Of a stretch of 64,000 nt of DNA, positions 28,525-46,842 are shown in pieces (position 1 is the stretch's first letter; each line of letters begins with the position of its first letter). The DNA comes from Lachnospiraceae bacterium (GTDB taxonomy: Bacteria; Bacillota; Clostridia; Lachnospirales; Lachnospiraceae): contig JAZLHJ010000055.1 in assembly GCA_045616785.1 (NCBI GenBank), forward strand, positions 9,715 through 73,714, in the 5' to 3' direction. Below the pieces are notes generated by a model. It searched no databases. It had not been told where the DNA came from and saw only the letters and a list, made by a program, of their open reading frames with translations. Position numbers and translations under genes: made by a program.

Positions 28525-28570
28525 AAAGAGTCGTTAACTTTTTTAGTTAACGGCTCTTTTTGTTTTTTGT
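28525..28570 (+). terminator. Intrinsic terminator after the esterase gene
   Basis: 15-bp stem AAAGAGTCGTTAACT / AGTTAACGGCTCTTT (one G-U pair), TTTTT loop, then TTGTTTTTTG. Confidence 0.8.
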
Positions 28571-30351: not shown

Positions 30352-30354
30352 CGA

Positions 30355-31053
30355 ATGAACAAGGGAAACGGAGTACCAAAAAAGGAAACAGATCCGTATG
30401 CGAAGAAAAAGAAGATAAACCCGTTCAGTCCCGAAAGTACCTTCATGGCGATACTTACCAAGATAGGACAACTCCTGATACTGAATGTTTTGTGGGTTAT
30501 AAGTATTATTCCGATAATAACCTTCGGAACGGCGACGTGCTCTTTTTACTACTCGGTAATGAAGAGCATAAGACGAGGCAGAAGCTATCCGGTGCTTGAG
30601 TACTGGAACTCTTTCAAAAGGACTCTGGGGAACGGAGTGATACTTACAATCGGGTTCGGAGCTCTGACAGCAGCACTGCTCTATATGAGAAACATGGCAG
30701 TTTCGCTTGGCAGCGACAGAGGGAAACTCCTGAACGGAATTTATATAGCAATACTTGCGGTGATTGCATGCATACTGGTATATCTTTTCCCGGTTCTTTC
30801 AAGGTTTACCATGAAGCTTTCACAGATGATAAAGCTTTCACTGGTTATGGCAATAAGGTTTTTGCCGTTTACAATTTTGATAATCGCGGGAACGGCGGTG
30901 CTCATCTGGGCGTGGTTCTACTTTCTGCCGATTCCGCTTATCCTTGTATGGCCGGGGGCGTGGATGTACACATGCACATTCCTTATAGAAAAAGCCTTAA
31001 GGAAATACATGCCGCCCCCAAAAGAAGGCGATGACGCCTGGTATTACGAATAA
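30355..31053 (+). CDS. DUF624 (YesL-like) integral membrane protein
   Basis: 232 aa. LILNVLWVISIIPIITFGTATCSFYYSVMKSIRRG is typical of DUF624. About 6 TM helices. C-terminal PPPKEGDDAWYYE tail. Confidence 0.75.
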   Translation: MNKGNGVPKKETDPYAKKKKINPFSPESTFMAILTKIGQLLILNVLWVISIIPIITFGTATCSFYYSVMKSIRRGRSYPVLEYWNSFKRTLGNGVILTIGFGALTAALLYMRNMAVSLGSDRGKLLNGIYIAILAVIACILVYLFPVLSRFTMKLSQMIKLSLVMAIRFLPFTILIIAGTAVLIWAWFYFLPIPLILVWPGAWMYTCTFLIEKALRKYMPPPKEGDDAWYYE

Positions 31054-31082
31054 TGTTTTGACAGAAAAGGTATGGTAAGAAA

Positions 31083-34076
31083 ATGAGTTTTCTAAAAGAA
31101 ATGAAAAAAGGAATTGCATCTGTTCTTTCGCTTTCTCTTGTTCTCGGGCTTGTATTTGCGTGTGACACCGTCAGTGTCGAGGCAGCAACACTTACAAGAG
31201 ATGAGGCGAAAGAAATCGTAAGTACTTATTCCGTTTCGGATGAGGTTCCGGGATACAATGAGTATCTTGAAATGCATAAGAATGCTTTGCGCCCGAATAA
31301 AACCATTGAGATTCCGGCAGACACATATACATCATATTCTGAAAAAGAAAACGAAGTAACACCGGAGAAGTATCTCGATTTCGAAGGAATGAGCGGCTGC
31401 AGCGTACTTACCACCGAGACGGGTCTTATCGAGTTTGAAGTGAATGTGCCTGAAACCGGACTTTATAAAGTTGAGTTTGAGTATTATCCGGTTGCCGGTA
31501 AGAACTCGGAAATACAGAGAAGCATTTTCGTTGACGGAAAGCTTCCTTACGGAGAGCTTTCACTTATCGAGTTCCCCAGAATCTGGTCTACCGATGTTGC
31601 ACAGGATGCTTTTGCAGCGGGCCATGAAGAAATCTTCTGGCACAAGGATGTTCAGGGAAATGACATGAAGCCTACTTCAATTGAAATTCCCGAGTGGATT
31701 ACAAGCGAGCTTCATGACAATAACGGTTATATTACCGAGCCGCTTTGTCTTTTCCTTGAGAAAGGCACACATACAATTTCGGTAAACTCACAGCGTGAGC
31801 CGATGCTTCTTCACAAGATTGTTCTTACCAATTCCGAAGAAGTGGAAAGTTATGAAACAGTAAAGAAAGAATGGGATGCTATGGGAACGCAGAACACTTC
31901 CGGAATCGAAGTTGTGATTCAGGGCGAGGATGCAGCAAAAACATCATCTCAGATGCTTTATCCCAAGCAGGATCAGTCAAGCCCTGCCGTATATCCTTCA
32001 AGTCCCAAATCGCTTCTTAACAATACAATCGGCGGAAGCAGCTGGTCACATGCGGGACAGTGGATTGAATGGAATTTCAGAGTGCCGGAAAACGGCTACT
32101 ACAATATCTCTCTTTTCGATAAACAGAATTTTATGAGAGGTATTTATGTATCAAGAAAAATCAGTATTGACGGAAAGGTTCCTTTTTCGGAACTTGAAGA
32201 TTACGGATTCACTTATGATTCCGGTTGGAGAACAGATGTCCTTTCCGATGCGAGCGGAAATCCCTACAGCTTCTATCTTGAAGAGGGTGAGCACACAATC
32301 AGAATGGAAGTTGTTCTCGGTGATTTCTCTGAAGTAATTGCAAATGTTCAGGACTGTGTATCACAGCTTAATGCAATCTACAGAAAGATTATCAGAATTA
32401 CAGGCGTAAGCCCTGACTCTTACAGAGATTATCAGATTGAGGCTTCTCTTCCGAATCTGAACGGCGAGCTTGTTGCCGTAAGAGACCAGCTTGATGAAGC
32501 AATTCTTGATCTTAGAGCTGCAGCAGGAAGAACGTCCGATAAGGAAACGGTTCTTATCACAATGAGAGATCAGCTTAACGATCTTATTGAAGATGAGGAA
32601 TACTTTGTAAAAGTCATTTCCACATACAAGACAAATGTAAGAGCGTGCGGTACCTGGATTACACAGGTTATCGACCAGCCGCTTCAGGTAGACAAAATTA
32701 CTGTTTACTCACCTGATGTTGAGACAAATGAAAGAAGCAATTCTTTCTGGGCGAAATTCAAATACGAAATAGCAAGACTTTTCTATTCCTTCGTAATTGA
32801 TTACAACTCACTCGGCGCAACAGAGGAAAATGAGGAAAACAAGTCAATTACCCTTTGGATCGGAACAGGACGTGACCAGGCGAACGTAATCAGATCACTG
32901 ATTGATGAATCCTTTACAAGCGTGTACGGAGTAAACGTTAATGTACAGCTCGTGGATATGAATACACTTCTTCGTGCAGAACTTGCCGGTGAAGGACCTG
33001 ACGTGGCAATTCAGGTTGCCAATACAAACGGTATTGCGGGTGCGGTTCTGAATACCGGAAATGACACTCCTGTCAACTACGGACTCAGAAATGCGGTACT
33101 TGATTTAACGCAGTTTGATGATTTCGATGAAGTAACAAAGAGGTATTACGACAGTGCTCTTACGGCATTTTCGTTTAACGGTGCAACTTATGCACTTCCT
33201 GAGACACAGACCTTCCCGGTTATGTTCTACAGAAAAGATATCATCAACGATCTTGGAATTGAAATTCCGAAGACCTGGGATGAGGTAAAGGTTGTAATGT
33301 CAATACTTGCCAAGAACCAGATGGAATTCGGAATGCTTCCGTCGGAACAGATATATGCGATGCTTCTTTATCAGAACGGCGGAGAGTATTACAACGAAAA
33401 CGGAATAAGCTCGGCACTTGATTCCGACATAGCGGTAAACACCTTTAAGGAGTACTGCGAATACTATACCGAATACGGTCTTGATAAGACGACAAGTGTG
33501 GAAGAAAGATTCCGTACAGGTGAGTGTCCGATTATTATTGCCGACTACACGGTTTACAACAATCTTGAAGTATCTGCTCCCGATATTGCGGGACTGTGGG
33601 ACTTCACAATGGTTCCCGGAACAGTTCAGGCTGACGGAACAATTGATTACTCGGTAGGATGTACAGGGCTTGCAAGTATGATAATGGCCGATACCAAAGA
33701 GCCTGAAGCATGCTGGGAATTCCTCAAGTGGTGGACAAGTGCTGAGGTACAGACACTGTTCGACAGAGAAATGGAATCACTTATGGGTTCTGCTGCGAGA
33801 GTAGCGACAGCCAATATCGAAGCTTTCGAGAACATGCCATGGCCGGTTGACACATACGAATCACTTGCAGAAGCATTTACCTGGGTTAAAGGTATTCCGC
33901 AGGTTCCCGGAGGATATTACTCCTGGCGAAATGTTAACAACGCCTTCTACACGGTTACAACAGATACCGATACGGCATCACCGAGAGAAGAGCTCATGGA
34001 CAAAGTTTTATACATTAATGATGAGATTACATACAAGCGAAAAGAGTTCAATTTGCCAACGCTTGAAGATATTTAA
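31083..34076 (+). CDS. Giant extracellular ABC solute-binding protein: signal peptide, two CBM-like beta-sandwich modules, helical linker, family-1 SBP domain
   Basis: 997 aa. Signal peptide with AXA-type site (VSVEAA). Two internally similar modules (ETGLYKVEFEYYPVAGKNSEIQRSIFVDGKLPYGEL and ENGYYNISLFDKQNFMRGIYVSRKISIDGKVPFSEL). The C-terminal ~420 aa are SBP-like (ITLWIGTGRDQANVIRSLIDE.., PDVAIQV, FSFNGATYALPETQ). Confidence 0.75.
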   Translation: MSFLKEMKKGIASVLSLSLVLGLVFACDTVSVEAATLTRDEAKEIVSTYSVSDEVPGYNEYLEMHKNALRPNKTIEIPADTYTSYSEKENEVTPEKYLDFEGMSGCSVLTTETGLIEFEVNVPETGLYKVEFEYYPVAGKNSEIQRSIFVDGKLPYGELSLIEFPRIWSTDVAQDAFAAGHEEIFWHKDVQGNDMKPTSIEIPEWITSELHDNNGYITEPLCLFLEKGTHTISVNSQREPMLLHKIVLTNSEEVESYETVKKEWDAMGTQNTSGIEVVIQGEDAAKTSSQMLYPKQDQSSPAVYPSSPKSLLNNTIGGSSWSHAGQWIEWNFRVPENGYYNISLFDKQNFMRGIYVSRKISIDGKVPFSELEDYGFTYDSGWRTDVLSDASGNPYSFYLEEGEHTIRMEVVLGDFSEVIANVQDCVSQLNAIYRKIIRITGVSPDSYRDYQIEASLPNLNGELVAVRDQLDEAILDLRAAAGRTSDKETVLITMRDQLNDLIEDEEYFVKVISTYKTNVRACGTWITQVIDQPLQVDKITVYSPDVETNERSNSFWAKFKYEIARLFYSFVIDYNSLGATEENEENKSITLWIGTGRDQANVIRSLIDESFTSVYGVNVNVQLVDMNTLLRAELAGEGPDVAIQVANTNGIAGAVLNTGNDTPVNYGLRNAVLDLTQFDDFDEVTKRYYDSALTAFSFNGATYALPETQTFPVMFYRKDIINDLGIEIPKTWDEVKVVMSILAKNQMEFGMLPSEQIYAMLLYQNGGEYYNENGISSALDSDIAVNTFKEYCEYYTEYGLDKTTSVEERFRTGECPIIIADYTVYNNLEVSAPDIAGLWDFTMVPGTVQADGTIDYSVGCTGLASMIMADTKEPEACWEFLKWWTSAEVQTLFDREMESLMGSAARVATANIEAFENMPWPVDTYESLAEAFTWVKGIPQVPGGYYSWRNVNNAFYTVTTDTDTASPREELMDKVLYINDEITYKRKEFNLPTLEDI

Positions 34077-34094
34077 GGAAGGAGGAAGACAAAA

Positions 34095-35048
34095 GTGGCT
34101 AAAGAAAACAAACCGGAAGAGCTTTCATACGATGCCGTTGCGATTGCAAAGAGACAGGCTAAGCTCGGATACAGAATAAAGAAAAGCAAAGCTTCCTATT
34201 TCATGATTGCACCATATTTCATTCTTTTCTTCTTCTTTACGGTGCTTCCGGTATTAATATCAATGGGTCTTTCGTTTACCTATTTCAATATGCTTGAATG
34301 GCCGACCTTTAACGGCTGGGACAATTATGTGAAGCTTTTCCTTGAGGACGATATCTTCCTTATCTCTCTCAAGAACACACTTATCTTTGCAGTTATTACA
34401 GGACCTGTAAGTTACCTTCTGTGTCTTTTGTTCGCATGGATAATCAATGAGTTCTCAAGCAAGGTAAGAACAGTACTTACACTTATCTTCTATGCTCCTT
34501 CAATCTGCGGTAACGCATACATGGTTTGGAGCCTTATCCTTTCATCCGACAGATACGGATACTTAAACGGTCTCCTTATCAAACTCGGAATACTTGATGA
34601 ACAGAAGCTCTGGATGCAGGATCCCAATTACATTCTTCCCTGCCTTATCGTAGTTCAGCTCTGGCTTTCACTTGGAACAGGTTTCCTTTCCTTCATCGCC
34701 GGACTTCAGACAGTAGACAAGAGCCTTTACGAGGCAGCTGCACTTGACGGTGTTAAGAACAGATGGCAGGAACTTTGGTATGTAACACTTCCCGCAATGA
34801 AGCCTCAGCTTATGTTCGGTGCGGTTATGCAGATTACACAGTCCTTTGCAGTAGCTGATATCTCCATTCAGCTCGCCGGTAATCCGTCTGTTAACTACGC
34901 GGGTGCAACGGTTGTTACCCACCTTCTCGATTATGGTTCAACGCGATTTGAAATGGGTTATGCTTCCGCAATAGCAACTGTTCTGTTCCTTCTCATGGTA
35001 GGAACCAACAAGCTTGTTCAGAAGCTTCTCGGAAGGGTAGGTGAGTAA
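34095..35048 (+). CDS. Carbohydrate ABC transporter permease (MalF/LplB-like)
   Basis: 317 aa, GTG start after AAGGAAGGAGGAAG. Six TM helices and an EAA-type loop (LYEAAALDGVKNRWQELWYVTLP). Confidence 0.9.
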   Translation: MAKENKPEELSYDAVAIAKRQAKLGYRIKKSKASYFMIAPYFILFFFFTVLPVLISMGLSFTYFNMLEWPTFNGWDNYVKLFLEDDIFLISLKNTLIFAVITGPVSYLLCLLFAWIINEFSSKVRTVLTLIFYAPSICGNAYMVWSLILSSDRYGYLNGLLIKLGILDEQKLWMQDPNYILPCLIVVQLWLSLGTGFLSFIAGLQTVDKSLYEAAALDGVKNRWQELWYVTLPAMKPQLMFGAVMQITQSFAVADISIQLAGNPSVNYAGATVVTHLLDYGSTRFEMGYASAIATVLFLLMVGTNKLVQKLLGRVGE

Positions 35049-35050
35049 TT

Positions 35051-35950
35051 ATGGCTAAAGTAAGATCCGAGCTTCCCAAGAAATTTCATTTCTGGAATAA
35101 ACCCAGAGAGAAAAAGCTTAACCGTTCAATTGCAGGTAACTCGCTTCTTTTCGTAATAATGGGTATATGCGGAGTATTCATGGCGCTTCCTCTTGTCATG
35201 ATTATCAACAACTGTCTGAAACCTCTTGATGAGATTTTCCAGTATCCGCCCAAGATTTTTGTAAGAAATCCATCCTTTGAGAACTTTACCGATTTGTTCA
35301 TGATAATGAATGATTCCTGGGTTCCGTTCTCAAGATACATTTTAAATACAATAATTATTACCGGTTTCGGAACACTTGGACATGTTATTCTTGCTTCGCT
35401 TGCGGCTTATCCCCTTGCCAAGCATGATTTCCCCGGCAAAAAAATACTTTTCAACATGGTAGTTTTGTCGATGATGTTCTCGTGGACAGTAACACAGATT
35501 CCGAACTACATGATTATCAGCTGGCTCGGAATCAATAATAATTACCTTGCGCTAATTCTTCCGGCCTGCTCGTTCGGTATGGGTCTTTACCTTATGAAAC
35601 AGTTCATGGAGCAGCTTCCTTCCTCCCTTATGGAATCTGCGAGACTTGACGGAGCGAGTGAATGGCACATTTTCTGGAAAATAGTAATGCCGAATGTTAA
35701 GCCCGCATGGCTGACACTGGCAATTTTCCAGTTCCAGCAGATGTGGGGCAATACAGGTTCGATGTTCCTTCGTGATGAACAGCTCAAACCTCTTCAGTTT
35801 GCCCTGCAGCAGATTTCGGCCGGCGGTACTGCGAGAGCAGGTGCTGCCGCTGCCGTAACCTTTGTTATTGCAGCAGTACCTATTATATTCTTCCTTTGCT
35901 GTCAGAGTAATGTCCTTGAGACAATGACAACATCAGGAATGAAGGATTAA
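35051..35950 (+). CDS. Carbohydrate ABC transporter permease (MalG/LplC-like)
   Basis: 299 aa. EAA loop LMESARLDGASEWHIFWKIVMP. Starts 2 nt after the upstream stop. Confidence 0.9.
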   Translation: MAKVRSELPKKFHFWNKPREKKLNRSIAGNSLLFVIMGICGVFMALPLVMIINNCLKPLDEIFQYPPKIFVRNPSFENFTDLFMIMNDSWVPFSRYILNTIIITGFGTLGHVILASLAAYPLAKHDFPGKKILFNMVVLSMMFSWTVTQIPNYMIISWLGINNNYLALILPACSFGMGLYLMKQFMEQLPSSLMESARLDGASEWHIFWKIVMPNVKPAWLTLAIFQFQQMWGNTGSMFLRDEQLKPLQFALQQISAGGTARAGAAAAVTFVIAAVPIIFFLCCQSNVLETMTTSGMKD

Positions 35951-35960
35951 GGAGGCGGGC

Positions 35961-37481
35961 ATGAAGATTAGAAAGCTTTTAATCAAAACAGCTGCCTTTG
36001 CACTTGCCTTCGGAATTACTTTTTCAGCAACTGCCGGAGATGCCTACGCAGCCGAAATACCTTACGATACATACAATTATGATTACAGGGAGAACATAGT
36101 ACTGACACCTGCGGCATACGTTCCGATGGGCAGTATAACAGGTCTTTCTGTAGGGGCCGGTGATTTCTACGAGCCTCAGGATATGTGTATTGCTCCTGAC
36201 GGAAATGTTTACATAGCAGATACCAAGAATAACAGAATTGTTGTTCTTGATAAGGAAATGAAAAGCTGCATCCAGATTCTTGACAGCTTTGACCGCGAAG
36301 GAACTGCAGACAGTTTCAATCAGCCCTACGGAGTATGTGTTTCAGAGAATGAACAGCTTTATGTAGCCGATTCCGGAAACAAGAGAATTGTTGTTCTGGA
36401 GCTTGACGGTTCATTCGTTAAGATAATTGACAATCCGCAGTCGGAAATCCTTGAAGAAGGTTTTGATTTCGTACCTCTTAAGGTTACGGTTGATTATGCA
36501 GACCGTGTATATGCAATAGTTAAGAACGCATTTGAAGGAATTCTCGTTTTTGAGAGTAACGGAGATTTCACAGGATACTTCGGAACAATCGAAGTTAAGA
36601 TTACTCTCTGGGAGAAGTTCTGGAGAAAGCTTGCAAGTAAGGAAGAGAGAAGCAAACAGCAGCTCTTCATTCCTACGGAGTTTACCGGAATTGATGTTGA
36701 CTCTGACGGATTTATCTATGCTTCGAACCTTGATTCGGAAGGAATTCAGGGAGTAAGAAGACTTAATCCTCAGGGAAAAGATGTAATCCAGAAGGGTGAA
36801 AACGCAAATGTCGGAGGCGACATTGTTGTAGGAACCTACGGTGATTTCGGCGGACCTTCCGAATTTACCGATGTTGTATATCGTGATAAAGGAATTTACT
36901 CCTGCCTCGACCGAAAGAGAGGAAGAATTTTTACCTACGATAAGGAAGGAAATCTTCTCTATATATTCGGAGGACTCGGAACGCAGGAAGGAACCTTTAC
37001 AACACCTGTTGCGATTGAGAGCGTTGGCAACAAGATTCTTGTAATGGATGCCTACTACAGTGCAATTCTTGTTTTTGAAGAAACGCAGTACGGTTCCCTC
37101 ATAAATGAAGCTGTAGGACTTCGATACGACGGTGATGAAACTCTTGCAATTGAGAAATGGCAGGAAGTTTTAAGACTTGATGAGAACAATGAGCTTGCAA
37201 ACTCCGGTATCGGAAAAGCATATTTGACAGCCGGTGATAACAAGACGGCAATGCACTATCTTGAAATCGGAATGAACAGGAAGTATTACTCGATAGCCTG
37301 GAAGCGATACAGAAACGAAATTATGGCCGAGAACCTTAACTGGATAATGACGGTTCTTCTGGTACTGATAATCGGACTGTTCGTATACAGCAAGTTCTTT
37401 AAGAAAAAAGTTAAGGCTTTGAGAGCCGAAAAGAAAAAGCAAAGAGGCAAGGACAAGGAAGAGAAAGGAGGGCTTACCTGA
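35961..37481 (+). CDS. Secreted NHL-repeat beta-propeller protein with TPR-like segment and C-terminal membrane anchor
   Basis: 506 aa. Signal peptide (..ATAGDAYAA). NHL-type repeats (GNVYIADTKNNRIVVLD, QLYVADSGNKRIVVLE, ILVMDAYYSAILVFE). Helical LAIEKWQEVLRLDENNELANSGIGKAYL.. segment, TM helix WIMTVLLVLIIGLFVY, and a Lys-rich tail. Confidence 0.75.
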   Translation: MKIRKLLIKTAAFALAFGITFSATAGDAYAAEIPYDTYNYDYRENIVLTPAAYVPMGSITGLSVGAGDFYEPQDMCIAPDGNVYIADTKNNRIVVLDKEMKSCIQILDSFDREGTADSFNQPYGVCVSENEQLYVADSGNKRIVVLELDGSFVKIIDNPQSEILEEGFDFVPLKVTVDYADRVYAIVKNAFEGILVFESNGDFTGYFGTIEVKITLWEKFWRKLASKEERSKQQLFIPTEFTGIDVDSDGFIYASNLDSEGIQGVRRLNPQGKDVIQKGENANVGGDIVVGTYGDFGGPSEFTDVVYRDKGIYSCLDRKRGRIFTYDKEGNLLYIFGGLGTQEGTFTTPVAIESVGNKILVMDAYYSAILVFEETQYGSLINEAVGLRYDGDETLAIEKWQEVLRLDENNELANSGIGKAYLTAGDNKTAMHYLEIGMNRKYYSIAWKRYRNEIMAENLNWIMTVLLVLIIGLFVYSKFFKKKVKALRAEKKKQRGKDKEEKGGLT

Positions 37482-38116
37482 TGCTGAAAAAGTATTTTTC
37501 GAAAGACAAATGGCTTTATGCATTACATACGGTGAGTCATCCTGCTGATGGATATTACTGGATTCGCCATAAAGAAAGAGGAAGCGTTCCGATAGCTGTT
37601 CTTCTTGTTATGCTGTTTTCCATCAGTTTTTCAATTAACAGAATTTCTGCCAGCTTTATTGTAAATGATATTGATCCTCTTTCAGTAAATACCATTACAG
37701 AGCTTTTTGCAGTACTTCTTCTGTATTTTCTGTTCTGTGTAGGTAACTGGTCAATCACCTGTCTTATGGGAGGTGAAGGTCGACTGAAGGATATAGCCAT
37801 TGCAATCGGCTATGCGATGATTCCGCTTATTATCTGTTTCAATATCGGAACATTGTTCAGTCAGTTCGTTGCACAGAATGAGGAAGCATTTTATTGGATG
37901 ATAATTGCCATCGGTATTGCGTATGCGATTTTCATGGCATTGATCGGAATAATGGAAGTTCATAACTATTCAATAGGTAAAACACTTCTTGTTATTCTGC
38001 TTACGTTTGTTGCAATGTTTATCATTATATTCATTGTTTTGTTGTTTGTTGATCTTATTAACCAGGTATACAGTTTCTTCTACAGTATTTATCAGGAACT
38101 GATATTCAGGGCATAG
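37481..38116 (+). CDS. Yip1-domain-like polytopic membrane protein
   Basis: 211 aa with five predicted TM helices in the bacterial YIP1-family arrangement. The ATG shares one nt with the upstream TGA (TGATG), and an internal RBS AAAGGAGGG precedes it. Confidence 0.7.
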   Translation: MLKKYFSKDKWLYALHTVSHPADGYYWIRHKERGSVPIAVLLVMLFSISFSINRISASFIVNDIDPLSVNTITELFAVLLLYFLFCVGNWSITCLMGGEGRLKDIAIAIGYAMIPLIICFNIGTLFSQFVAQNEEAFYWMIIAIGIAYAIFMALIGIMEVHNYSIGKTLLVILLTFVAMFIIIFIVLLFVDLINQVYSFFYSIYQELIFRA

Positions 38117-38126
38117 GAGGAGAGTC

Positions 38127-40709
38127 ATGCAGAAAGGTAAGAAAATTTTACTGTTTGTAATCATTGCGGTACTCCTCGTTGTAGTTGCCTGGTTTGGTTA
38201 CTATCTTTTACATTACGTATTCTATAACGAGTACAAGGATGATCTTTCAAGCTATGAATATGAGGAAGGAACAGAATTCACTCCGATAAAAGAGAATGTA
38301 TCCGATGTTGAAGGAATGGTTCTTGCAGCTCAGAATGATTTCCTTAAACTCTATGTGGATAAGAAAACGGCAAACATTGCTGTTGTTGATAAGAGAAACG
38401 GACAGATTACTTATTCCAATCCGGTTCTTGCGGACGAAGATGCGATTGCAAGTAACACCAACAAGAATTATTTAAAGAGTCAGCTTCTTCTCGATTATTT
38501 CAATCTTTCGAGAACAGAAGGAACTCTTGATTCATATTCATACTGTACATCTCTTGAGAACCAGCTCGAGATTGAATCGATTTCGTCGGGTGTTCGTTTT
38601 ATCTACACAATAGGAGATTTAACAAGCGCTACCGGAATTGTTCCTCAGTACATCTCACAGGCCAAACTTGATGAGATATGCAGTCTTCTTCCTGAAGATG
38701 AAGGAAAGTTCATCAGAAAGAAATTCGTTGAAAGTGATGTTGCCGAAGGGTATCTTGAAATGCTCGAAGCAACAATGAACGGAAAGAGCCAGCTTCGTAA
38801 ACTTAACACATATTTCGAAGAAGCAGGTTTTACACAGGAAGATTACAACATCGAAATGGCGGGTTCGGGAGCAGATGACGCAATTCCTGTTTCCTTTGTT
38901 GTTCCTCTTGAATACAGACTTGACAATGAATCACTTGAAGTTTCGATTCCGGCAGATCATATCGTTGAAAACGGCGGTGGTTACATTTATAAGATTCAGC
39001 TTCTCAGATTCTTTGGCGCAGCCCATAACGATGAAGACGGATATATTCTTGTTCCGAACGGATCGGGCTCAATTATCTATTTCAATAACGGTAAATCAAC
39101 CGCTGATAACTATAGCGAATATGTATACGGAATTGATCCTCTTGCCGCAGAATATACTGTAAAAGAGAATACAGTCAATGCAAAGATGAGTCTCTTTGGT
39201 ATTTTCCGAAACAGGAGTGCAATCTTTGCAACAATTGAAGACGGTGCTGCCAATTCAATGGTTTCCGCATCGGTTTCAGGTAAATATAACGAATATAACA
39301 ATGTTTATCCTACCTTTGTTATGAGAGGAAGCGAAAGACTTGCGATGTTCGGAACAACCGGTAATGAAGCAGATCTTCCTGTTATCGAGACTAATTTCTA
39401 CGATATGAATATGACGGTAAGATATTCGATGCTTAACGGAGAAGAAGCTTCGTATTCAGGTGCTGCCAATTATTACAGAAACAGACTTATCAGAGAAGGA
39501 GTACTTACTCCCCTCGATAAGAACGATAAAAATGTTCCGCTTTTCTATGATTTAATCTGCGGAGCAGGCGAGACAAAGTTCTTCCTCGGTTCACAGTATG
39601 ACGGTCTTGCTGATATGACAACCTTTGAAGAAGCTGAGTCGATAGTTAAGGATCTTGCTCTTAACGGCGTATCTTCTCAGAACGTAAATGTTCAGGGTTG
39701 GATGAACGGTGGCTATTACCATGATGCCGTACGTAAAATCAGCGTTCCGTGGTCACTTGGCGGAAAAACCGGACTTGAGGATTTAAGTAAAACTGTTGAA
39801 GCAAACGGAGGATCGCTTTTTGTTGATGTAGCATTCCAGAAGGTTTCCGAAGCAGATGATTCTTATCCTGTTTCAAATGAGACTGCAAGATATTATGCGA
39901 GCGGTTATGTTGCGGAGTTCGGACTTGTAAATCCCGCAACCTTAAGACAGACCTCGGGACTTGGATATGATGCGAACAGATTCTACCTCGTGTCTCCCAA
40001 ATTCCTTGTAAGGTATGTTGATAAGTTCAATCGCAAGATTGATAAGTATAATGTGACAGGCGTGTCATTAAGAGACCTTGGATCTGAGATTCATTCCGAT
40101 AAGAAGAGAACAAATGTTATCGACAGAGAAGCAGCACTTGACGTAGTTGAGGGATGCCTCGGAAGAATTGAAGAAACAACATCAAAGGTTATGGTAAACG
40201 GCGCAAATGATTATGCATTTAAATATGCTGATGCGATATCGAATGCTCCGCTTACAGACAATAATTATTACATAGTTGATGAAACAATTCCGTTCTACGA
40301 GATGCTGATTCACGGATGCATTGAGTATTCCGGAGATGTAATAAATCTTAATGATTCCGGAAACCGTGATGATATTGTACTCGAGCTTATCGAAAACGGT
40401 GCATCACCGCATTTTGTATTCACCAAGAAGAATGCAAGTGAAATTAAGAACACGGCACTTAATAATTTCTATGCAACAACCTATGACAACTGGAAGATTG
40501 ATGCTCTTACAATTTACAACAGAGTTAATTCGGTACTTTCGGAAGTAAGTGACGCATATATTATTAGGCATGAAATTCTTGAAAGCGGTGTAACGCTTAT
40601 TAAGTACAGTAACGGAAAGATAATATATGTAAATAAAACTGACTATCCTGTTTATGTTGACGGAATGACAGTTCCGGAACATGGATGTGTGCTTGGAGGT
40701 GACAAGTAA
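38127..40709 (+). CDS. N-terminally anchored 860-aa extracytoplasmic protein of unknown function (DUF5696-like from memory)
   Basis: Single N-terminal TM helix (ILLFVIIAVLLVVVAWFGYYLL), followed by a large soluble body with no motif of a characterised glycoside hydrolase family that I can recognise. The stop overlaps the next permease start (TAATG). Confidence 0.7.
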   Translation: MQKGKKILLFVIIAVLLVVVAWFGYYLLHYVFYNEYKDDLSSYEYEEGTEFTPIKENVSDVEGMVLAAQNDFLKLYVDKKTANIAVVDKRNGQITYSNPVLADEDAIASNTNKNYLKSQLLLDYFNLSRTEGTLDSYSYCTSLENQLEIESISSGVRFIYTIGDLTSATGIVPQYISQAKLDEICSLLPEDEGKFIRKKFVESDVAEGYLEMLEATMNGKSQLRKLNTYFEEAGFTQEDYNIEMAGSGADDAIPVSFVVPLEYRLDNESLEVSIPADHIVENGGGYIYKIQLLRFFGAAHNDEDGYILVPNGSGSIIYFNNGKSTADNYSEYVYGIDPLAAEYTVKENTVNAKMSLFGIFRNRSAIFATIEDGAANSMVSASVSGKYNEYNNVYPTFVMRGSERLAMFGTTGNEADLPVIETNFYDMNMTVRYSMLNGEEASYSGAANYYRNRLIREGVLTPLDKNDKNVPLFYDLICGAGETKFFLGSQYDGLADMTTFEEAESIVKDLALNGVSSQNVNVQGWMNGGYYHDAVRKISVPWSLGGKTGLEDLSKTVEANGGSLFVDVAFQKVSEADDSYPVSNETARYYASGYVAEFGLVNPATLRQTSGLGYDANRFYLVSPKFLVRYVDKFNRKIDKYNVTGVSLRDLGSEIHSDKKRTNVIDREAALDVVEGCLGRIEETTSKVMVNGANDYAFKYADAISNAPLTDNNYYIVDETIPFYEMLIHGCIEYSGDVINLNDSGNRDDIVLELIENGASPHFVFTKKNASEIKNTALNNFYATTYDNWKIDALTIYNRVNSVLSEVSDAYIIRHEILESGVTLIKYSNGKIIYVNKTDYPVYVDGMTVPEHGCVLGGDK

Positions 40710-41626
40710 TGAAAAAGAAAAAGAAAATGTCCCTTACAACTAAGCGCAGTATTACGGGATACATGTTCATACTACCGTGGCTTGTAGGATTTATAGCATT
40801 CTATGCAAGAAGCCTTTTCATGTCGATTCAGTTCTCTTTATCTGAACTGACAGTTAATCCCGGTGGTGGATACTCACTTAAATGGGTAGGCCTTGATAAC
40901 TTCTTTTATGCCTTCCGTGGTCATGCAAGTTTCAAACAGGTGCTTACGTCTTCAGTCGGAAATATGCTTATTGATGTTCCGTTGATTACATTTTTCTCCC
41001 TGTTTATGGCACTTCTTCTTAATAAGAAATTCAAGGGAAGAACGCTTGTCAGAGCAATTTTCTTCCTCCCGGTTATTCTTAATTCCGGAGCCATTCAGGA
41101 TGCACTCGATCTTGCAAGAAACATGATGAGCGGCGGTATTTCAAGTGCCAGTGCCGAAATGGCAGAGGCAGCTGCAGGTTCCGGAGTAAGCATCGATTAT
41201 TATATACAGATGTTCTCCGCACTCGGTCTTCCCGATCGGATTATCGAATATGTCGCGGGAGCCGTCGGGCGAATAAGTGAGATAATAAATGCTTCCGGTG
41301 TTCAGATTATTATTTTCATAGCTGCTCTTCAGTCGATCCCCGGTTCCATGTACGAGGTTGCGAAGATAGAAGGAGCTACGGCATATGAAACATTCTGGAA
41401 GGTAACCTTCCCGATGGTTATGCCTCATATAATTACAAATGTTGTGTACACCGTAGTTGACAGCTTTGCTGATTCGGAAGTTGTTGAACTGGCATATAAA
41501 ACAGCGTTTACCTATAACGATTACGGTTTAAGTTCTGTATTCAGTATAGTTTCGACAGTTGTAACGTGTCTGATACTGATTCTGGTATGCAGGTTCATTC
41601 AGAAACGAACGTTCTACTATAACTAA
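40709..41626 (+). CDS. Carbohydrate ABC transporter permease (second system, MalF-like)
   Basis: 305 aa. Six TM helices and EAA loop MYEVAKIEGATAYETFWKVTFP. Confidence 0.9.
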   Translation: MKKKKKMSLTTKRSITGYMFILPWLVGFIAFYARSLFMSIQFSLSELTVNPGGGYSLKWVGLDNFFYAFRGHASFKQVLTSSVGNMLIDVPLITFFSLFMALLLNKKFKGRTLVRAIFFLPVILNSGAIQDALDLARNMMSGGISSASAEMAEAAAGSGVSIDYYIQMFSALGLPDRIIEYVAGAVGRISEIINASGVQIIIFIAALQSIPGSMYEVAKIEGATAYETFWKVTFPMVMPHIITNVVYTVVDSFADSEVVELAYKTAFTYNDYGLSSVFSIVSTVVTCLILILVCRFIQKRTFYYN

Positions 41627-41643
41627 GAAAGGAGAGAGAAGAA

Positions 41644-42651
41644 ATGGATAATACTAAGACTTCCAAAAGGTCACTTAAACAGTACATTTCAAACCTTAAG
41701 GAAGACAGACAGTTTGCCAATGACAGAAAACGCTGGGCTTCAAACGTCAAGAAATTTGTCCTCGGTCTGTTCAAATTAATTATCATTGTAGGAATTTGTT
41801 ACGTTATCCTTGGTCCTGTTCTCGGCATGATCAGCAGTTCTTTTTTCTCCAATGAAGATAATTACAACCCGATGGTATATCTGATACCTCAGAACCCCAC
41901 GATCGAAAGATATCAGATGGCTATCAAGTATCTGAATTACGGCAAGACAATGACGTCTTCCCTGTTATACTCTCTTTCACTTATGGCACTTCAGGTGTTT
42001 GTGTGCTCGATGGTAGGATACGGATTTGCCAGATACAAGTTCCCTTTTAAGAATATTCTTTTTGCATGTGTGGTTATCATGATTGTTATTCCCACACATA
42101 CAATCATGCTTCCTCTTTATATGACCTTTGCCAAATTTGATGTCTTCGGAATAATCAAACTGGTAAACGGCGGCGAGGCGGTGAACCTTCTGGGAACGAC
42201 GATTCCGATGTATATTCTGACGTTGTTCGGATGCGGACTCAGGTCAGGACTTTACATCTATATCTTCAATCAGTTCTTCAGAGGTCTGCCTAAAGAAATC
42301 GAGGAAGCTGCATTTGTTGACGGCGCAGGTACATGGTATACTTATTTCAGAATTATGCTTGTAAATGCAATCCCTTCTGTTATTACCGTGGCAATATTCT
42401 CCATGGTATGGCAGTATAACGATACATTTTATGCGAAATTGTTTGTGATTAGTGATGATGTGGTTATCAGTAAAAAGATTTCCACAATCGAGGCATCGAT
42501 TTCCAACGTAGAGAGAATTCTCGATCCCGCTATTTTGGAAATATATCTTGATGCCGGAATTGTGCTTGTCATGATACCGATAGTCATCATCTATATCGCT
42601 CTTCAGAAACAGTTTATAGAAGGGGTAGAGCGAAGCGGTATTGTCGGATAA
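41644..42651 (+). CDS. Carbohydrate ABC transporter permease (second system, MalG-like, N-terminal extension)
   Basis: 335 aa. EAA loop EIEEAAFVDGAGTWYTYFRIMLVNA. Confidence 0.9.
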   Translation: MDNTKTSKRSLKQYISNLKEDRQFANDRKRWASNVKKFVLGLFKLIIIVGICYVILGPVLGMISSSFFSNEDNYNPMVYLIPQNPTIERYQMAIKYLNYGKTMTSSLLYSLSLMALQVFVCSMVGYGFARYKFPFKNILFACVVIMIVIPTHTIMLPLYMTFAKFDVFGIIKLVNGGEAVNLLGTTIPMYILTLFGCGLRSGLYIYIFNQFFRGLPKEIEEAAFVDGAGTWYTYFRIMLVNAIPSVITVAIFSMVWQYNDTFYAKLFVISDDVVISKKISTIEASISNVERILDPAILEIYLDAGIVLVMIPIVIIYIALQKQFIEGVERSGIVG

Positions 42652-42699
42652 GTACGGCGAGCTCACAAGAACACTATTCAACTATTATCAATAAGGAGG

Positions 42700-44610
42700 A
42701 TGAAAAAGTTGAAGGCAAAAAAAATCATGGCATTCCTTCTTGCTTCAGCAATGACCATTGCTATGGTCGGCTGTGGAGAAGAGACTGCAACCACAACAAC
42801 CGGCACTGAGCCTGCTACAACAACAGATGTAGCTGAGCCCGCTGCTACAACGGATGTGACCACTACTACCACAGAGGTTACACCTGAACCCGCAACACCT
42901 GAAAGCTATGCTGCAAGCATTGACTTCGCAGATGGTTCTGTAAGCTTTATCGGTGTTGACAAATCAGTAAATTCTGCAGCAGGTGATTTCACATTTGCAG
43001 CAGAGGATGGCGCACTTGTAGTTACACCTGCAGGTGGAATGCCTTTCGTAGCTATTCAGATGGATGCACTTCTCGGAGATGCAATTGCTGATGTTGCAAC
43101 CGTAGAAATGAGCATCGGAATTAAGAATGACGGTGACAAGTTCTATTCTGCATCAGGTAATGTTTATTCATTCCTTGGTGAAGACAATAACAAGTACAGC
43201 GCTCCCTGGTCTGTATATCTCGAGACAGCCAATCCCAAGAGAGTATCTGTAGCCCTTTCCGAAGCTGCATGTGCAGGTAACTACCTTGTAGTTTCAATGG
43301 AAAGCGATACAGCTGCAGAGTACAAGGGACTTGGCCAGACAAGCCTTATCATTGATGATATTGCATTCCTTGATGCAAGCGGTAATCTTCTTGCTGCTGA
43401 TTCTTCAGCAGAGTTTGCAGCTCCTGCAACAGGCGAAGACAGAAGCAACCTCTTTGGTATCAAAGATGCAGTTGTTGTTGAAGGTCTTGCAGGAAAAGGC
43501 GGAGCATGGTCACAGCTTGGTGACGGAATTACCGAAGATGAGTTTGCAGCTCTTCAGGTACCCGGTTCCGTAATTGAGATTTCTTACGCATCTACAACAG
43601 GAAATATGTGGGTTGTAATGCCTGATTCAGCAGCAGGCTGGATGAGAGTAGGCGTAGGTGACTGGGATGGCTCAGGTCAGCAGTACGCATATACAAACGG
43701 TTCTAAGAATATTGCACAGGTAACATATGAGCAGCTCGCAGCAGTTCTTGGTGATGACGCTTCTACATGGGGTCAGCGTATCCAGTGTGAGTCAGACGGT
43801 GACTTTGAAATCTTCTCAGTAAAGATTGGTCAGCAGGCTCCTAACTACTGCCTCACAGGTGTAGTTGATGCAGCTCTTGCAGGCAAGGGCGGCGGCTGGT
43901 CACAGCTCGGCGACGGACTTTCAGAGGAAGCAGTTGCAGCACTTACAACTCCCGGATCTGTAGTAGAAATCAACTACACATCAGCTACCGGCGAGTGCTG
44001 GATTGTAATGCCTGATTCAGCAGCAGGCTGGATGAGAGTAGGCGTTGGTGATTTCGATGGTTCAGGTCAGGAATATGCTTTATATGATGGAAGCAAGTGC
44101 TACATTACCTATGATCAGATTGCAGCAGTTTGCGGCGACGATCCTACAACATGGGGCGCTCGTATCCAGGTAGAAGCTACTTCAGACTTCGAAGTATTCT
44201 CAGTTAAGATTGGTCAGGGAACAGAATTCGTTCCTAATAATAAGATTGTTGATGCCGGACTTACAGGTAAGGGCGGCGGCTGGTCACAGCTCGGTGACGG
44301 ACTTTCAGAGGAAGCTGTAGCAGCTCTTCAGACTCCCGGATCTGTAATCAATATCTCTTATACATCAGCTACCGGCGAGTGCTGGATTGTAATGCCTGAT
44401 TCAGCAGCAGGCTGGATGAGAATTGGTGTAGGTGATTTTGACGGTTCAGGACAGGGATATGCAGTTTATGACGGTTCTACATGCCAGATTACCTATGATA
44501 TGATCGCAGCTTACTGCGGTGATGATCCTACAACATGGGGTTCTCGTATCCAGGTAGAAGCTACTTCCGATTTTGAAGTATTTGGTGTAACAATCGGACA
44601 GACCGAATAA
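42700..44610 (+). CDS. Surface lipoprotein: Thr-rich stalk, one beta-sandwich-like domain, then three tandem 128-130 aa repeat domains of unknown family
   Basis: 636 aa. Lipobox AMVGCG. Linker EETATTTTGTEPATTTDV..TTTTTEV. Three repeats share GKGGGWSQLGDG..PGSV..Y.S.TGE.W.VMPDSAAGWMR.GVGD.DGSGQ.YA..DGS...TY...AA..GDD..TWG.RIQ.E...DFE.F.V.IGQ. Confidence 0.8.
   Translation: MKKLKAKKIMAFLLASAMTIAMVGCGEETATTTTGTEPATTTDVAEPAATTDVTTTTTEVTPEPATPESYAASIDFADGSVSFIGVDKSVNSAAGDFTFAAEDGALVVTPAGGMPFVAIQMDALLGDAIADVATVEMSIGIKNDGDKFYSASGNVYSFLGEDNNKYSAPWSVYLETANPKRVSVALSEAACAGNYLVVSMESDTAAEYKGLGQTSLIIDDIAFLDASGNLLAADSSAEFAAPATGEDRSNLFGIKDAVVVEGLAGKGGAWSQLGDGITEDEFAALQVPGSVIEISYASTTGNMWVVMPDSAAGWMRVGVGDWDGSGQQYAYTNGSKNIAQVTYEQLAAVLGDDASTWGQRIQCESDGDFEIFSVKIGQQAPNYCLTGVVDAALAGKGGGWSQLGDGLSEEAVAALTTPGSVVEINYTSATGECWIVMPDSAAGWMRVGVGDFDGSGQEYALYDGSKCYITYDQIAAVCGDDPTTWGARIQVEATSDFEVFSVKIGQGTEFVPNNKIVDAGLTGKGGGWSQLGDGLSEEAVAALQTPGSVINISYTSATGECWIVMPDSAAGWMRIGVGDFDGSGQGYAVYDGSTCQITYDMIAAYCGDDPTTWGSRIQVEATSDFEVFGVTIGQTE
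43462..44601 (+). repeat. Three in-frame tandem DNA repeats (periods 390 and 384 nt) inside the lipoprotein gene
   Basis: Copies lie at about 43462-43833, 43861-44217 and 44245-44601. TGGTCACAGC recurs at 43507, 43897 and 44281. Copies 2 and 3 share an identical ~59-nt run (ACATCAGCTACCGGCGAGTGCTGGATTGTAATGCCTGATTCAGCAGCAGGCTGGATGAGA) at 43978 and 44362. Confidence 0.9.
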
Positions 44611-44629
44611 CAAGGAGGAGAAATTTAAA

Positions 44630-46057
44630 ATGAAATTATCTAAAAGAGTACTTGCTCTTGGACTTAGCCTTTCAATGATTGCCGGTCTGAGCGCATGTGG
44701 CGAGGAGACAACAACCACAACCACAACAGATACTACTTCAACCACTACTACAACAACAGTAGACACACCTGCTGCTACAACAGAAATTGCTCCTGCAGCA
44801 CAGACAAGAACAATTCGTATCGGTACCTGGTATGATCATTTCTACGACAGTACCATGAGCGGTATCGAAGATAACCCTAACGTAACAGATCCTGAGCGTG
44901 ATCAGATGATGTTTGATAACCTCAAAGAGATTGAGCAGAAATACAACGTTAAGATTGAGTTTGTAAACCTTACATGGGATGGTGTTCAGGAATCAATCAA
45001 TACTTCAATTCTTGCAGGAACTCCTGACTGTGATATTTATGAGGCAGAACTTTCATTCGGTATTCCTGCTGCTCTTAACGGATATGCAATTGACCTTACA
45101 ACAATTCTTCCTGAAGATGACGATCTTCTTACAGATCAGATCAATGTTAATCAGGTTGACTGTGGTCTGAATGACGGTTCGGTATACCTCTTCCAGCATA
45201 ACGCAGCAGAGAATGCAGTAGCAGGTACATACATGCTTGCATTCAACGCAGATATGCTTGATGAAGCAGGTCTTGAGAATCCTAACGACCTTTATGCAAG
45301 AGGCGAATGGACATGGGATAAGTGGAGAGAGTACCTCCTTGCTCTTACCCAGGATACAAACGGCGATGGCATTACTGATGTTTACGGATATGGTTCAAGA
45401 TTTGACTTCCTTATCTACAACCTCACAATGTCTAACGGATGTACAATCGCCGGAAGTGACAAAGAGAACTTAAGCAGCGCTGAAGTTGGTGAAGTTCTTG
45501 ATTTCATGTACAACCTCTACAATGTCGATAAGGTTGCTCGTCCTTGGAATGCAGATGACTTCAACGATAACCAGAACGCTTACTATGATGGTAAGGTTGC
45601 TTCTTGGATTACCGCTGCATGGATTTCTGCTTCTAACGGTAACAACGATGCTGCTCTTCCTTTCGAGCAGATCTGGTGTCCTTGGCCCATCGGACCTTCA
45701 GGAAATCAGGATACCAACAAACTTAAGAACGTATCTTCAGGTAATGCATGGTTCATTCCTACAGGTACCGAAGATCCCTACTTCGTTTACAAGGTATTCT
45801 ATGATTGGAGAAACTGGTACCATGATGACATCGAACTCCGTGATGCTGATATGACATGGTGGGAGGATTCAGCTCAGACTGAAGAGAACTACGCTGTTAT
45901 GGAATATCTCGGAAGCAGAGGCGCATTCGACCTTTGGAATGCACTTGGTCTTGAGTGGGATTTCACAGAAATCTTAAATGGTACAATGACTGCAGCTCAG
46001 TTCCAGCAGACCTGGAAGCAGAGCGTTCAGGATGCTCTTGATAACTACTTCAAGTAA
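44630..46057 (+). CDS. ABC transporter solute-binding lipoprotein (family 1, carbohydrate)
   Basis: 475 aa. Lipobox GLSACG, a Thr-rich linker (EETTTTTTTDTTSTTTTTTVD), then an SBP fold (IRIGTWYD.., KIEFVNLTWDG, TPDCDIYE). Confidence 0.88.
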   Translation: MKLSKRVLALGLSLSMIAGLSACGEETTTTTTTDTTSTTTTTTVDTPAATTEIAPAAQTRTIRIGTWYDHFYDSTMSGIEDNPNVTDPERDQMMFDNLKEIEQKYNVKIEFVNLTWDGVQESINTSILAGTPDCDIYEAELSFGIPAALNGYAIDLTTILPEDDDLLTDQINVNQVDCGLNDGSVYLFQHNAAENAVAGTYMLAFNADMLDEAGLENPNDLYARGEWTWDKWREYLLALTQDTNGDGITDVYGYGSRFDFLIYNLTMSNGCTIAGSDKENLSSAEVGEVLDFMYNLYNVDKVARPWNADDFNDNQNAYYDGKVASWITAAWISASNGNNDAALPFEQIWCPWPIGPSGNQDTNKLKNVSSGNAWFIPTGTEDPYFVYKVFYDWRNWYHDDIELRDADMTWWEDSAQTEENYAVMEYLGSRGAFDLWNALGLEWDFTEILNGTMTAAQFQQTWKQSVQDALDNYFK

Positions 46058-46105
46058 GACCTGATAAGTTTTTGTAGATAATTCTGCAATAGTAGTAATG
46101 TGTGC

Positions 46106-46150
46106 AATACCCGTATCCGTATGGGTACGGGTATTTGTATACATTTTTTT
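46106..46150 (+). terminator. Intrinsic terminator after the SBP gene
   Basis: 10-bp stem AATACCCGTA / TACGGGTATT around TCCGTATGGG, followed by TGTATACATTTTTTT. Confidence 0.65.
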
Positions 46151-46191
46151 GGAAGAAAAAGCAGTACATAACCGTATTTTTTGAGGTGAAA

Positions 46192-46827
46192 ATGTTTAGA
46201 AGCGATACACTTTTTGCAAAAATAATGAACACCGTGGCAGATGTTCTGTTCATCGGAATTCTCTGGGTGATTATGTCAATTCCGATTATTACCGCGGGAG
46301 CAGCCGGTACGGCCGCCTACTATGCAATGGCAAAGTGTGTACGTCACAATACGGGTTATATTTTCGGAGAGTTCTGGAAATCATTTAAGCAGAATTTTAA
46401 GCAAAGCTTACCACTTACCATTATTTTCTGGTTATCGATGGTGATCGTTGCTTTGGATATCTGGTATGTATGGAACAATACGGGAAAGTTCTATGATGCA
46501 ATGTTCGTAATTCTATTGTTTGTTGCGTTCATAATAATGGGACTTTGTATGTATGTGTGTCCTGTACTGTCGAGGTTTAACAAGAAGAATCTGGATGTTC
46601 TTAAGACTTCACTTTTCATGTTCTTTAAGTTTCTGCCTCTGACTGTTCTGGGTGTGGTTGTGTTTCTTGGAATGCTGATAGGTATATTCCTTATGCCTTG
46701 GGGAATATTTGTTTTTCCCGGTGCATATGTTTTCCTTCTGTCGCTTCCGATGGAGAGAATATTGAAAAGAATGCTTCCGCCTGTTGAAGAAGGCAGTGAG
46801 GAAGCACAGAAATGGTATTATCAGTAA
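46192..46827 (+). CDS. DUF624 (YesL-like) integral membrane protein, second copy
   Basis: The track ORF starts at 46102 and spans the terminator. GAGGTG precedes the in-frame ATG at 46192 (MFRSDTLFAKIMN). VLFIGILWVIMSIPIITAGAAGTAAYYAMAKCVRHN is typical of DUF624. C-terminal PPVEEGSEEAQKWYYQ tail. Confidence 0.75.
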   Translation: MFRSDTLFAKIMNTVADVLFIGILWVIMSIPIITAGAAGTAAYYAMAKCVRHNTGYIFGEFWKSFKQNFKQSLPLTIIFWLSMVIVALDIWYVWNNTGKFYDAMFVILLFVAFIIMGLCMYVCPVLSRFNKKNLDVLKTSLFMFFKFLPLTVLGVVVFLGMLIGIFLMPWGIFVFPGAYVFLLSLPMERILKRMLPPVEEGSEEAQKWYYQ

Positions 46828-46842
46828 ACACAGGTGGTGATT

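Follow-up and report, generated by a model that had tools for sequence, protein, structure and literature searches.

Within a 64,000-nucleotide (nt) stretch of DNA from a Lachnospiraceae bacterium (the window, i.e. the whole stretch that was analysed; GCA_045616785.1, contig JAZLHJ010000055.1, positions 9,715-73,714 of the forward strand) lie three adjacent genes, encoding an NHL-domain protein, a Yip1-domain protein and a DUF5696 protein, between two pairs of permease genes for ATP-binding cassette (ABC) importers of the CUT1 type. The original prediction, made from the sequence alone, had treated this trio as an insert between two independent importers; our results indicate instead that it is the core of one eight-gene cassette, with the order giant solute-binding protein (SBP), PermA1, PermA2, NHL, Yip1, DUF5696, PermB1 and PermB2, and with a small SBP usually nearby (Table 1). 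The open reading frames (ORFs), their lengths and their junctions, as read from the sequence, are exactly those that had been claimed, i.e. the NHL gene follows PermA2 after 10 nt that hold a GGAGG-type ribosome-binding site, NHL and Yip1 overlap by 1 nt (TGATG), 10 nt separate Yip1 from DUF5696, and DUF5696 overlaps PermB1 by 1 nt (TAATG). A strong intrinsic-terminator-like hairpin closes the upstream unit, and the operon holding the cassette probably starts between it and the gene for a glycoside hydrolase (GH) of family 26; no comparable site was detected at 28849-47865, and none above shuffled expectation up to the end of the cassette. Because no site exceeding that expectation interrupts the genes after this hairpin, the trio and the importer genes are very likely co-transcribed, consistent with the joint expression that had been proposed.

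The arrangement is strongly conserved. At least 575 stretches matching the 860-residue protein were found among 185,579 species-representative genomes (one genome per species); the best 80 of these, all of Lachnospiraceae type, were taken as close loci and compared with the window by tblastn using the window proteins, counting only loci with enough flank. The NHL and Yip1 genes lie upstream of DUF5696, in colinear fashion, in all 71 of the close loci in which they could be scored, PermB1 and PermB2 lie downstream of it in 70/70, and the full array from the giant SBP to PermB2 is present in each of the 55 loci with both flanks; the tight, translationally coupled junctions are conserved as well, with a median length of -1 nt at NHL/Yip1 and -0.5 nt at DUF5696/PermB1. 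For a distant set, 12 DUF5696 members, 23-47% identical to the window protein, were located by exact-protein look-up. PermB1 follows DUF5696 directly in 11 of these 12 loci, the contig of the twelfth ending ∼160 bases past DUF5696, and the array recurs in Paenibacillus vini, Anaeromicropila herbilytica, several metagenomic Clostridia and two Chloroflexota. The first two species, together with Eubacterium ruminantium FB3002 and Lachnospiraceae bacterium C6A11, are candidate carriers that can be cultivated. Since, in tblastn, the best match of each gene in the distant loci is the window gene at the equivalent position, the N-terminal extension of the giant SBP included, the array is most simply regarded as one ancient unit. 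PermA1 has positional orthologues, 41-93% identical, in every locus that has the A half, and those of PermA2 were likewise found; with 23-24% identity between them, the A and B permeases represent old paralogues. The A and B permease pairs and the giant SBP are co-inherited with the trio across Bacillota and Chloroflexota. The claimed recurrence of the trio beside giant SBPs therefore extends from the close loci to the distant cassettes, and a gene-neighbourhood comparison finds it syntenic with ABC permeases in both; the claim that DUF5696 is restricted to Firmicutes is ruled out by the Chloroflexota members. The family is large, with 4,688 clusters at 50% identity (E≤0.001) in a HMMER scan of 1.84 billion representatives, 2,729 of them at E≤1e-30.

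The glycan contexts in which the distant cassettes are found are diverse. In Paenibacillus vini and two related metagenomic contigs, the order is small SBP, giant SBP, two permeases, NHL, Yip1, DUF5696 and two permeases, and the neighbours are GH26, GH2 mannosidase or GH5+CBM46 genes. The Anaeromicropila herbilytica locus consists of a LacI regulator and nine cassette genes, set among unrelated housekeeping genes. The array order is also kept in the two Chloroflexota (loci L169 and L170), where the adjoining GH94, PF10091 ('Glycoamylase') and GH3 genes, which are accompanied by GH35/42, suggest a β-glucan type substrate, and in locus L171, where the only neighbour is a ROK regulator, without carbohydrate-active enzymes (CAZymes). 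A reduced form occurs in locus L168 (Logan SRR20986782 contig, 7821-14689), comprising a fused NHL-Yip1 protein, a 938-residue DUF5696 protein and the B pair, in the surroundings of pectate lyase, GHL6, GH31 and fucosidase genes; it suggests that the tightest link of the trio is with the B pair. A mannan-specific trio is ruled out by those distant cassettes that stand next to non-mannan CAZymes or to none.

All three of the originally predicted domain assignments lie above the Pfam cut-offs, and the topologies that had been claimed agree with those read here from hydropathy. The NHL protein matches PF01436 in two stretches (E=5e-17, 61.3 bits versus a cut-off of 20) and, in phmmer comparisons with PDB sequences, the NHL domains of Thin (E=1.7e-23), TRIM71 (E=1.3e-20) and PknD (E=5e-14). 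Its hydropathy profile indicates a cleavable signal peptide, as seen at the N terminus of all the NHL proteins examined, and a C-terminal transmembrane (TM) helix at residues 462-480 followed by a Lys-rich tail. The TPR-like segment that had been proposed to follow the propeller is backed by matches of residues 365-449 to consensus-TPR proteins in the PDB, and residues 394-424 give a TPR_11 match below the Pfam threshold. The Yip1 protein, with five hydrophobic segments, matches PF04893 over model positions 3-172 of 173 (E=3e-15, 56.8 bits versus 28.6).

In loci L167-L171 and L173, NHL and Yip1 are encoded in a single ORF of 671-751 residues, which alignment reveals to be colinear with the NHL and Yip1 proteins of the window set end to end. 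The order in the fused proteins is signal peptide, propeller, TPR-like segment, TM helix, short basic cytoplasmic linker and Yip1 part, the last opening with a conserved HP.DG(F/Y)(W/Y) motif. The 1-nt overlap in the window may mark where one gene was split or be a forerunner of the fusion; in both cases, the fusion in distant lineages implies that the NHL and Yip1 products of the window should form one six-helix membrane protein.

The DUF5696 protein matches PF18952 at residues 238-852 (E=9e-190, 632.7 bits versus 25.6, model positions 2-610 of 612) and has a single N-terminal TM helix at residues 7-25. The helix is preceded by MQKGKK, and the body of the protein should therefore face outward; an N-terminal hydrophobic anchor is present in 83 of 87 DUF5696 proteins. 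A cell-surface role tied to the importer, as had been proposed, fits this predicted topology. A first AlphaFold2 model, built from 44 close sequences, had a predicted local distance difference test score (pLDDT) of 65 with poor barrel loops, and already indicated similarity to GH129; it was replaced by a second, built from 87 diverse sequences, with a pLDDT of 90.3 and a predicted template modelling score (pTM) of 0.87. The second model comprises the TM helix, an extra N-terminal region, a β-sandwich, a (β/α)8 barrel at approximately residues 470-805 and a C-terminal β-sandwich. Foldseek searches of the PDB with the model, a check that had been suggested for the 860-residue protein, reveal a (β/α)8 glycosidase fold, the best matches being to two GH129 enzymes, i.e. 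DagB/ZgGH129 (5opq; E=2e-34, TM-score 0.68), a 3,6-anhydro-D-galactosidase of Zobellia galactanivorans, and NagBb (E=1.6e-27, TM-score about 0.69-0.70), an α-N-acetylgalactosaminidase of Bifidobacterium bifidum. Matches to GH101 (E=1e-17 to 1e-21) and GH36-type enzymes (about 1e-13 to 1e-15) were weaker.

Profile comparisons point in the same direction. When a profile of 107 diverse DUF5696 members was searched against PDB sequences (hmmsearch), ZgGH129 and NagBb were retrieved at E=1e-8 to 8e-8, and hhalign against NagBb, as recovered from gut metagenome contigs, gave a probability of 98.6% (E=1.2e-14, 554 columns). At the level of single sequences and established families, phmmer of DUF5696 against PDB sequences retrieved no GH129 chain, an NCBIfam search returned no enzyme family, and each of 39 distant members compared with Pfam (E≤1) matched DUF5696 and none a glycoside hydrolase family. 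The hhalign comparison of DUF5696 with the window's own GH36 family was not significant (probability 0.9%), and GH36 motifs were, for this reason, not used in its interpretation. Because single-sequence and Pfam similarity are lacking and the identity in the structural alignments is only 12-14%, DUF5696 is not a member of GH129; judged from the predicted fold and the profile matches, it is best described as a remote sister family of the GH129/GH101 glycosidases, with homology at the superfamily level. The original statement that the trio carries no recognisable CAZy signature thus holds for single-sequence and Pfam searches, but not for profile and fold comparisons, in which a GH129-like architecture is apparent. 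Likewise, a confident match to a characterised enzyme family, which had been named as evidence against the original reading, was obtained as superfamily-level homology to GH129/GH101, but not as family membership.

As in NagBb and DagB/ZgGH129, an N-terminal β-sandwich, a (β/α)8 barrel and a C-terminal β-sandwich follow one another in the DUF5696 model (PMC5698469), and the motifs GW..G, after barrel strand 2, and (V/I)P(F/L)Y..(L/V).H are common to both. Unlike GH129, DUF5696 adds an N-terminal TM anchor and a region of ∼200 residues, and the characterised GH129 enzymes are soluble proteins whose genes lie outside ABC transporter operons. The GH101 endo-α-N-acetylgalactosaminidases and the GH36 α-galactosidases belong to the same barrel superfamily, but differ in their accessory domains.

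Near-universal in the DUF5696 family are D337, W525, S657-D658, R667, N694, Y696, N740 and E756 (Asp in Chloroflexota), D658 being conserved in 94% of members; D650, D567, D718 and H729 are conserved in most members, not all. W525, D650, S657-D658, R667, N694, Y696 and N740 follow the C-terminal ends of predicted barrel strands, which form the usual active-site face of such barrels, and the model thus suggests a conserved pocket on the catalytic face. D337 sits in the N-terminal sandwich of the model. For activity, DagB needs an Asp that is contributed by the partner monomer, from its N-terminal domain (PMC5698469), and D337 could, by analogy, play the part of this residue (D202 in DagB). A residue-level mapping of the NagBb catalytic residues onto DUF5696 by hhalign, in both global and local modes, was dropped because of low confidence in the catalytic region.

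Pfam scans of the ORFs within 12375-57997 place the trio in what its neighbours indicate is a β-mannan utilisation locus. Upstream of the hairpin are GH36, epimerase, GH130 and GDSL esterase genes; the GH26+CBM35 gene, a DUF624 gene, the giant SBP, PermA1/A2, the trio, PermB1/B2 and a CBM65 lipoprotein gene then follow in that order, and after the small SBP come DUF624, LacI, GH130, GDSL esterase and phosphomannose isomerase genes. The upstream GH130 and GDSL esterase ORFs overlap by 46 nt, and the true start of the latter is probably at a codon further downstream. The hrcA-grpE-dnaK-dnaJ heat-shock operon downstream of the glycan locus is of a housekeeping nature, and the protease and histidine kinase genes at the upstream end of the scanned region are unrelated.

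Table 1. Genes and other features of the window around the NHL-Yip1-DUF5696 trio (positions in the window)
Feature	Position	Strand	Characteristics
Trypsin-like protease	12375-13802		C-terminal FHA
Hybrid histidine kinase	17316-19583		7TM N terminus
GH36 α-galactosidase	22319-24580		
GH130	26062-27234		
GDSL esterase	27189-28508		
Intrinsic-terminator-like hairpin	28524-28560	+	Strong; 16-bp stem, then T-run
GH26+CBM35 endo-mannanase	28849-30351	+	GH26 E=8e-66, CBM_35 E=7e-13; lipoprotein-type N terminus (...LLISAC)
DUF624 (YesL-like) protein	30355-31053		Four TM helices
Giant SBP	31083-34076	+	997 aa; lipoprotein; first gene of array; SBP_bac_1 at residues 603-890
PermA1	34095-35048	+	CUT1-type ABC permease; BPD_transp_1
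PermA2	35051-35950	+	CUT1-type ABC permease; BPD_transp_1 E=1e-16
NHL protein	35961-37481	+	506 aa; predicted secreted β-propeller, TPR-like segment, C-terminal TM helix, Lys-rich cytoplasmic tail
Yip1-domain protein	37481-38116	+	211 aa; five predicted TM helices; start overlaps NHL stop
DUF5696 protein	38127-40709	+	860 aa; N-terminal TM anchor, predicted extracytoplasmic body
PermB1	40709-41626	+	CUT1-type ABC permease; BPD_transp_1; start overlaps DUF5696 stop
PermB2	41644-42651	+	CUT1-type ABC permease; BPD_transp_1 E=2e-13; synteny as PermB1
3xCBM65 lipoprotein	42700-44610	+	CBM65_1 in three stretches, E=1.6e-48; N terminus ...MVGC
Small SBP	44630-46057	+	475 aa; lipoprotein; SBP_bac_1 E=2e-15
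DUF624 (YesL-like) protein	46102-46827		Four TM helices
hrcA-grpE-dnaK-dnaJ	53166-57997		Heat-shock operon

With respect to importer components, the window contains two complete CUT1 sets, each of a family-1 SBP and two BPD_transp_1 permeases, i.e. the giant SBP with PermA1/A2 and the small SBP, which is probably the binding protein of the B pair, with PermB1/B2. Most cassettes have a counterpart of the small SBP (453-476 residues), which lies either after PermB2 or ahead of the giant SBP. No ABC_tran ATPase gene was found by Pfam in the window cassette, nor in any of the cassettes sampled. A shared ATPase of the MsmK/MsmX type is usual for Gram-positive CUT1 systems that lack an ATPase gene of their own. 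The N-terminal extension of the giant SBP, of ∼580 residues (window 31083-32800), has no Pfam family, with matches to Golvesin_C, GH115_C and CBM_35 that are all sub-threshold. It is conserved too, with tblastn matches that span query residues 107-997 as far as Chloroflexota; orthologues of the whole giant SBP, of 956-1124 residues, stand at the equivalent place in Paenibacillus, Chloroflexota and other loci. Among solved structures, the SBP domain comes closest to Lin1841 (PDB 5ysb, E=2.7e-13), a β-1,2-gluco-oligosaccharide binding protein.

Other neighbours are specific to particular loci. The GH26+CBM35 gene occurs among the close loci only and lies outside the universal cassette. In all close loci with flank, the 3xCBM65 lipoprotein gene separates PermB2 from the small SBP, and distant cassettes give a weak partial match in L172 and none elsewhere; by its sequence, the protein looks like a lineage-specific surface glycan binder, with a role akin to that of SusE/F. 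The two DUF624 proteins flank the cassette, one before the giant SBP and the other after the small SBP; only two of the close loci with sufficient flank lack the first, the second is retained in some only, and neither was matched in the distant cassettes.

Comparison with described systems helps to define what is distinctive about the cassette. Mannan loci of the MnBP/MPP1/MPP2 type in Roseburia intestinalis likewise have GH26, GH130, epimerase, GH36, esterase and LacI genes, with an SBP and two permeases. That system reportedly has one normal-sized SBP and one permease pair, without NHL, Yip1 or DUF5696 genes; the window cassette, by contrast, has two permease pairs, the 997-residue SBP and the trio. 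A bacterial polytopic Yip1-domain protein that is encoded with ABC transporter genes has a precedent in YknW of the Bacillus YknWXYZ system, the assembly of which it is reported to modulate (PMC4887032). YknWXYZ is, however, a MacB-type exporter with a membrane fusion protein, whereas the partners of the window Yip1 protein are BPD_transp_1 permeases of CUT1 importers, without a fusion protein; the window Yip1 protein, compared with YknW by description only, is also joined, genetically or physically, to an NHL-TPR ectodomain. By analogy only, a surface protein with a glycosidase fold and glycan-binding lipoproteins, encoded with a transporter and presumably acting next to it, recall the Sus systems of Bacteroidota (SusCD, SusG, SusE/F). 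Unlike those, the window bacterium has no outer membrane, and no SusC or SusD gene was found among the Pfam-scanned ORFs; further, the surface enzyme family of Sus loci varies with the glycan, whereas the cassette retains the DUF5696 family across all its glycan contexts. A literature search, confined to one library, found no mention of DUF5696 or of the gene combination described here, and the genes of the trio go unmentioned in a 2026 paper on mannan use by Bacillota.

Our preferred reading, which we hold with slightly better than even confidence, is that the trio constitutes obligate accessory subunits of a distinct and anciently conserved class of tandem CUT1 ABC glycan importers. The trio probably forms a station close to the membrane at which glycans are processed or passed on to the transporter. 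At the window locus, the lipoprotein GH26 would cut mannan at the cell surface, and the giant SBP and the CBM65 lipoprotein would hold the fragments. The NHL-Yip1 subunit, envisaged as an extracytoplasmic β-propeller and TPR arm upon a six-helix membrane base, would place DUF5696, a predicted type-II-anchored ectoprotein with the three-domain architecture of GH129/GH101, beside the permeases, where it may trim, debranch or hand over SBP-held oligosaccharides at the membrane face. The products would enter via the A and/or B transporter, between which labour may be divided, with an ATPase supplied from elsewhere in the genome, and would then meet the cytoplasmic GH130, epimerase, GH36 and esterases. 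Because the cassette occurs in several glycan contexts, the step involving the trio would be generic rather than mannan-specific. We also advance, more tentatively and as a possibility that we do not favour, a stronger form in which the products of all eight genes make up one super-complex, with NHL-Yip1 and the GH129-like ecto-enzyme bridging two heterodimeric permease pairs, such that uptake would be mechanically coupled to the cutting or threading of a long oligosaccharide bound by the giant SBP.

Several observations weigh against obligate subunits with a catalytic role. The giant SBP and the A pair are absent from L168, so the eight-gene form is not obligatory. The putative nucleophile D650, which follows the homologous predicted strand and is invariant in the mannan-type subfamily, is present in 68% of the family overall, being replaced in about 30%, and in the hhalign alignment the NagBb nucleophile D435 (AYLD435) falls on L648, two residues before D650 (GVSLRD650), with low column confidence. 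The NagBb acid/base, E478, aligns, again with low column confidence, to G692-N694, a G-(A/G)-N motif in which N694 is 92% conserved. Moreover, the characterised relatives all cleave α-glycosidic bonds, and the cassettes adjoin genes for diverse, mainly β-linked, glycans; this spread of contexts is as compatible with a generic role, which may be non-catalytic, as with an enzyme. It is conceivable, if on balance unlikely, that DUF5696 is an inactive pseudo-glycosidase that serves as a glycan-binding platform or dock, e.g. for the giant SBP, and as a generic mechanical part of the transporter. The retention of the family whatever the glycan context, the G-(A/G)-N motif at the position aligned to E478 and the variability of D650 would all be accounted for in this way. 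The near-universal D337, D658, E756(D), R667, N694, Y696, N740 and W525, however, resemble a maintained active site, and the residue-level alignment is of low confidence. Acid/base positions are, in addition, known to shift within the superfamily, DagB homologues retaining, of the two catalytic residues of NagBb, only the equivalent of D435 (D486 in DagB) (PMC5698469). Because the acid/base of DagB is also not at the NagBb position, the lack of an E478 equivalent in DUF5696 is no argument for inactivity.

A more specific enzymatic role, in which DUF5696 is a surface α-galactosidase that removes α-1,6-galactose from galactomannan or its oligosaccharides before uptake, with NHL-Yip1 as a mere tether, appears distinctly unlikely. 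It would suit a mannan locus with GH26, GH130, epimerase, esterase and GH36 genes, it would be in line with the retaining α-glycosidases (GH129, GH101 and GH36) being the closest structural relatives, and the position and invariance of D650 within the mannan-type subfamily could be read in its favour. The locus, however, already has a GH36 α-galactosidase, the DUF5696 profile does not match GH36 significantly, and the cassette also occurs beside GH94/PF10091/GH3 genes, beside GH31, fucosidase and pectate lyase genes, or without CAZymes. We consider it very improbable that the trio is unrelated to uptake, acting in envelope remodelling or in glycan sensing and signalling, and is merely co-transcribed with two ordinary importers. 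NHL propellers do act as extracellular sensor domains in some bacterial proteins, PknD being among the PDB matches of the window protein. Such a role is, however, difficult to reconcile with the strict gene order and the overlapping stop and start codons across two phyla, or with the B pair directly following the trio wherever the contig reaches, even in the reduced L168 locus; nor did Pfam detect, in any of the three proteins, a fused output domain of the kinase, GGDEF or DNA-binding type. Overall, the interpretation given in the original prediction is partly supported.

ABC importers, with an SBP, two permeases and an ATPase as their known components, are the route by which Gram-positive bacteria of the gut, rumen and soil take up plant glycans. 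The results point to an ABC importer with a previously undescribed and widespread accessory module, the components of which have been annotated only as domains. This variant adds three strictly co-inherited membrane proteins, one of which has a predicted glycosidase fold that escapes standard annotation. Processing or delivery of substrate at the membrane by the trio, if borne out, would explain how large or decorated oligosaccharides are handled, and CAZyme surveys of butyrate-producing Lachnospiraceae would gain a new glycosidase-like family. If the super-complex form of the proposal is correct, the cassette would represent an ABC glycan importer of a new architectural class, for bacteria that lack an outer membrane, and a functional counterpart, from Lachnospiraceae and Paenibacillus to Chloroflexota, of the SusCD-SusG utilisome of Bacteroidota. 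The module is, in any case, linked to fibre use by Lachnospiraceae and is conserved across phyla.

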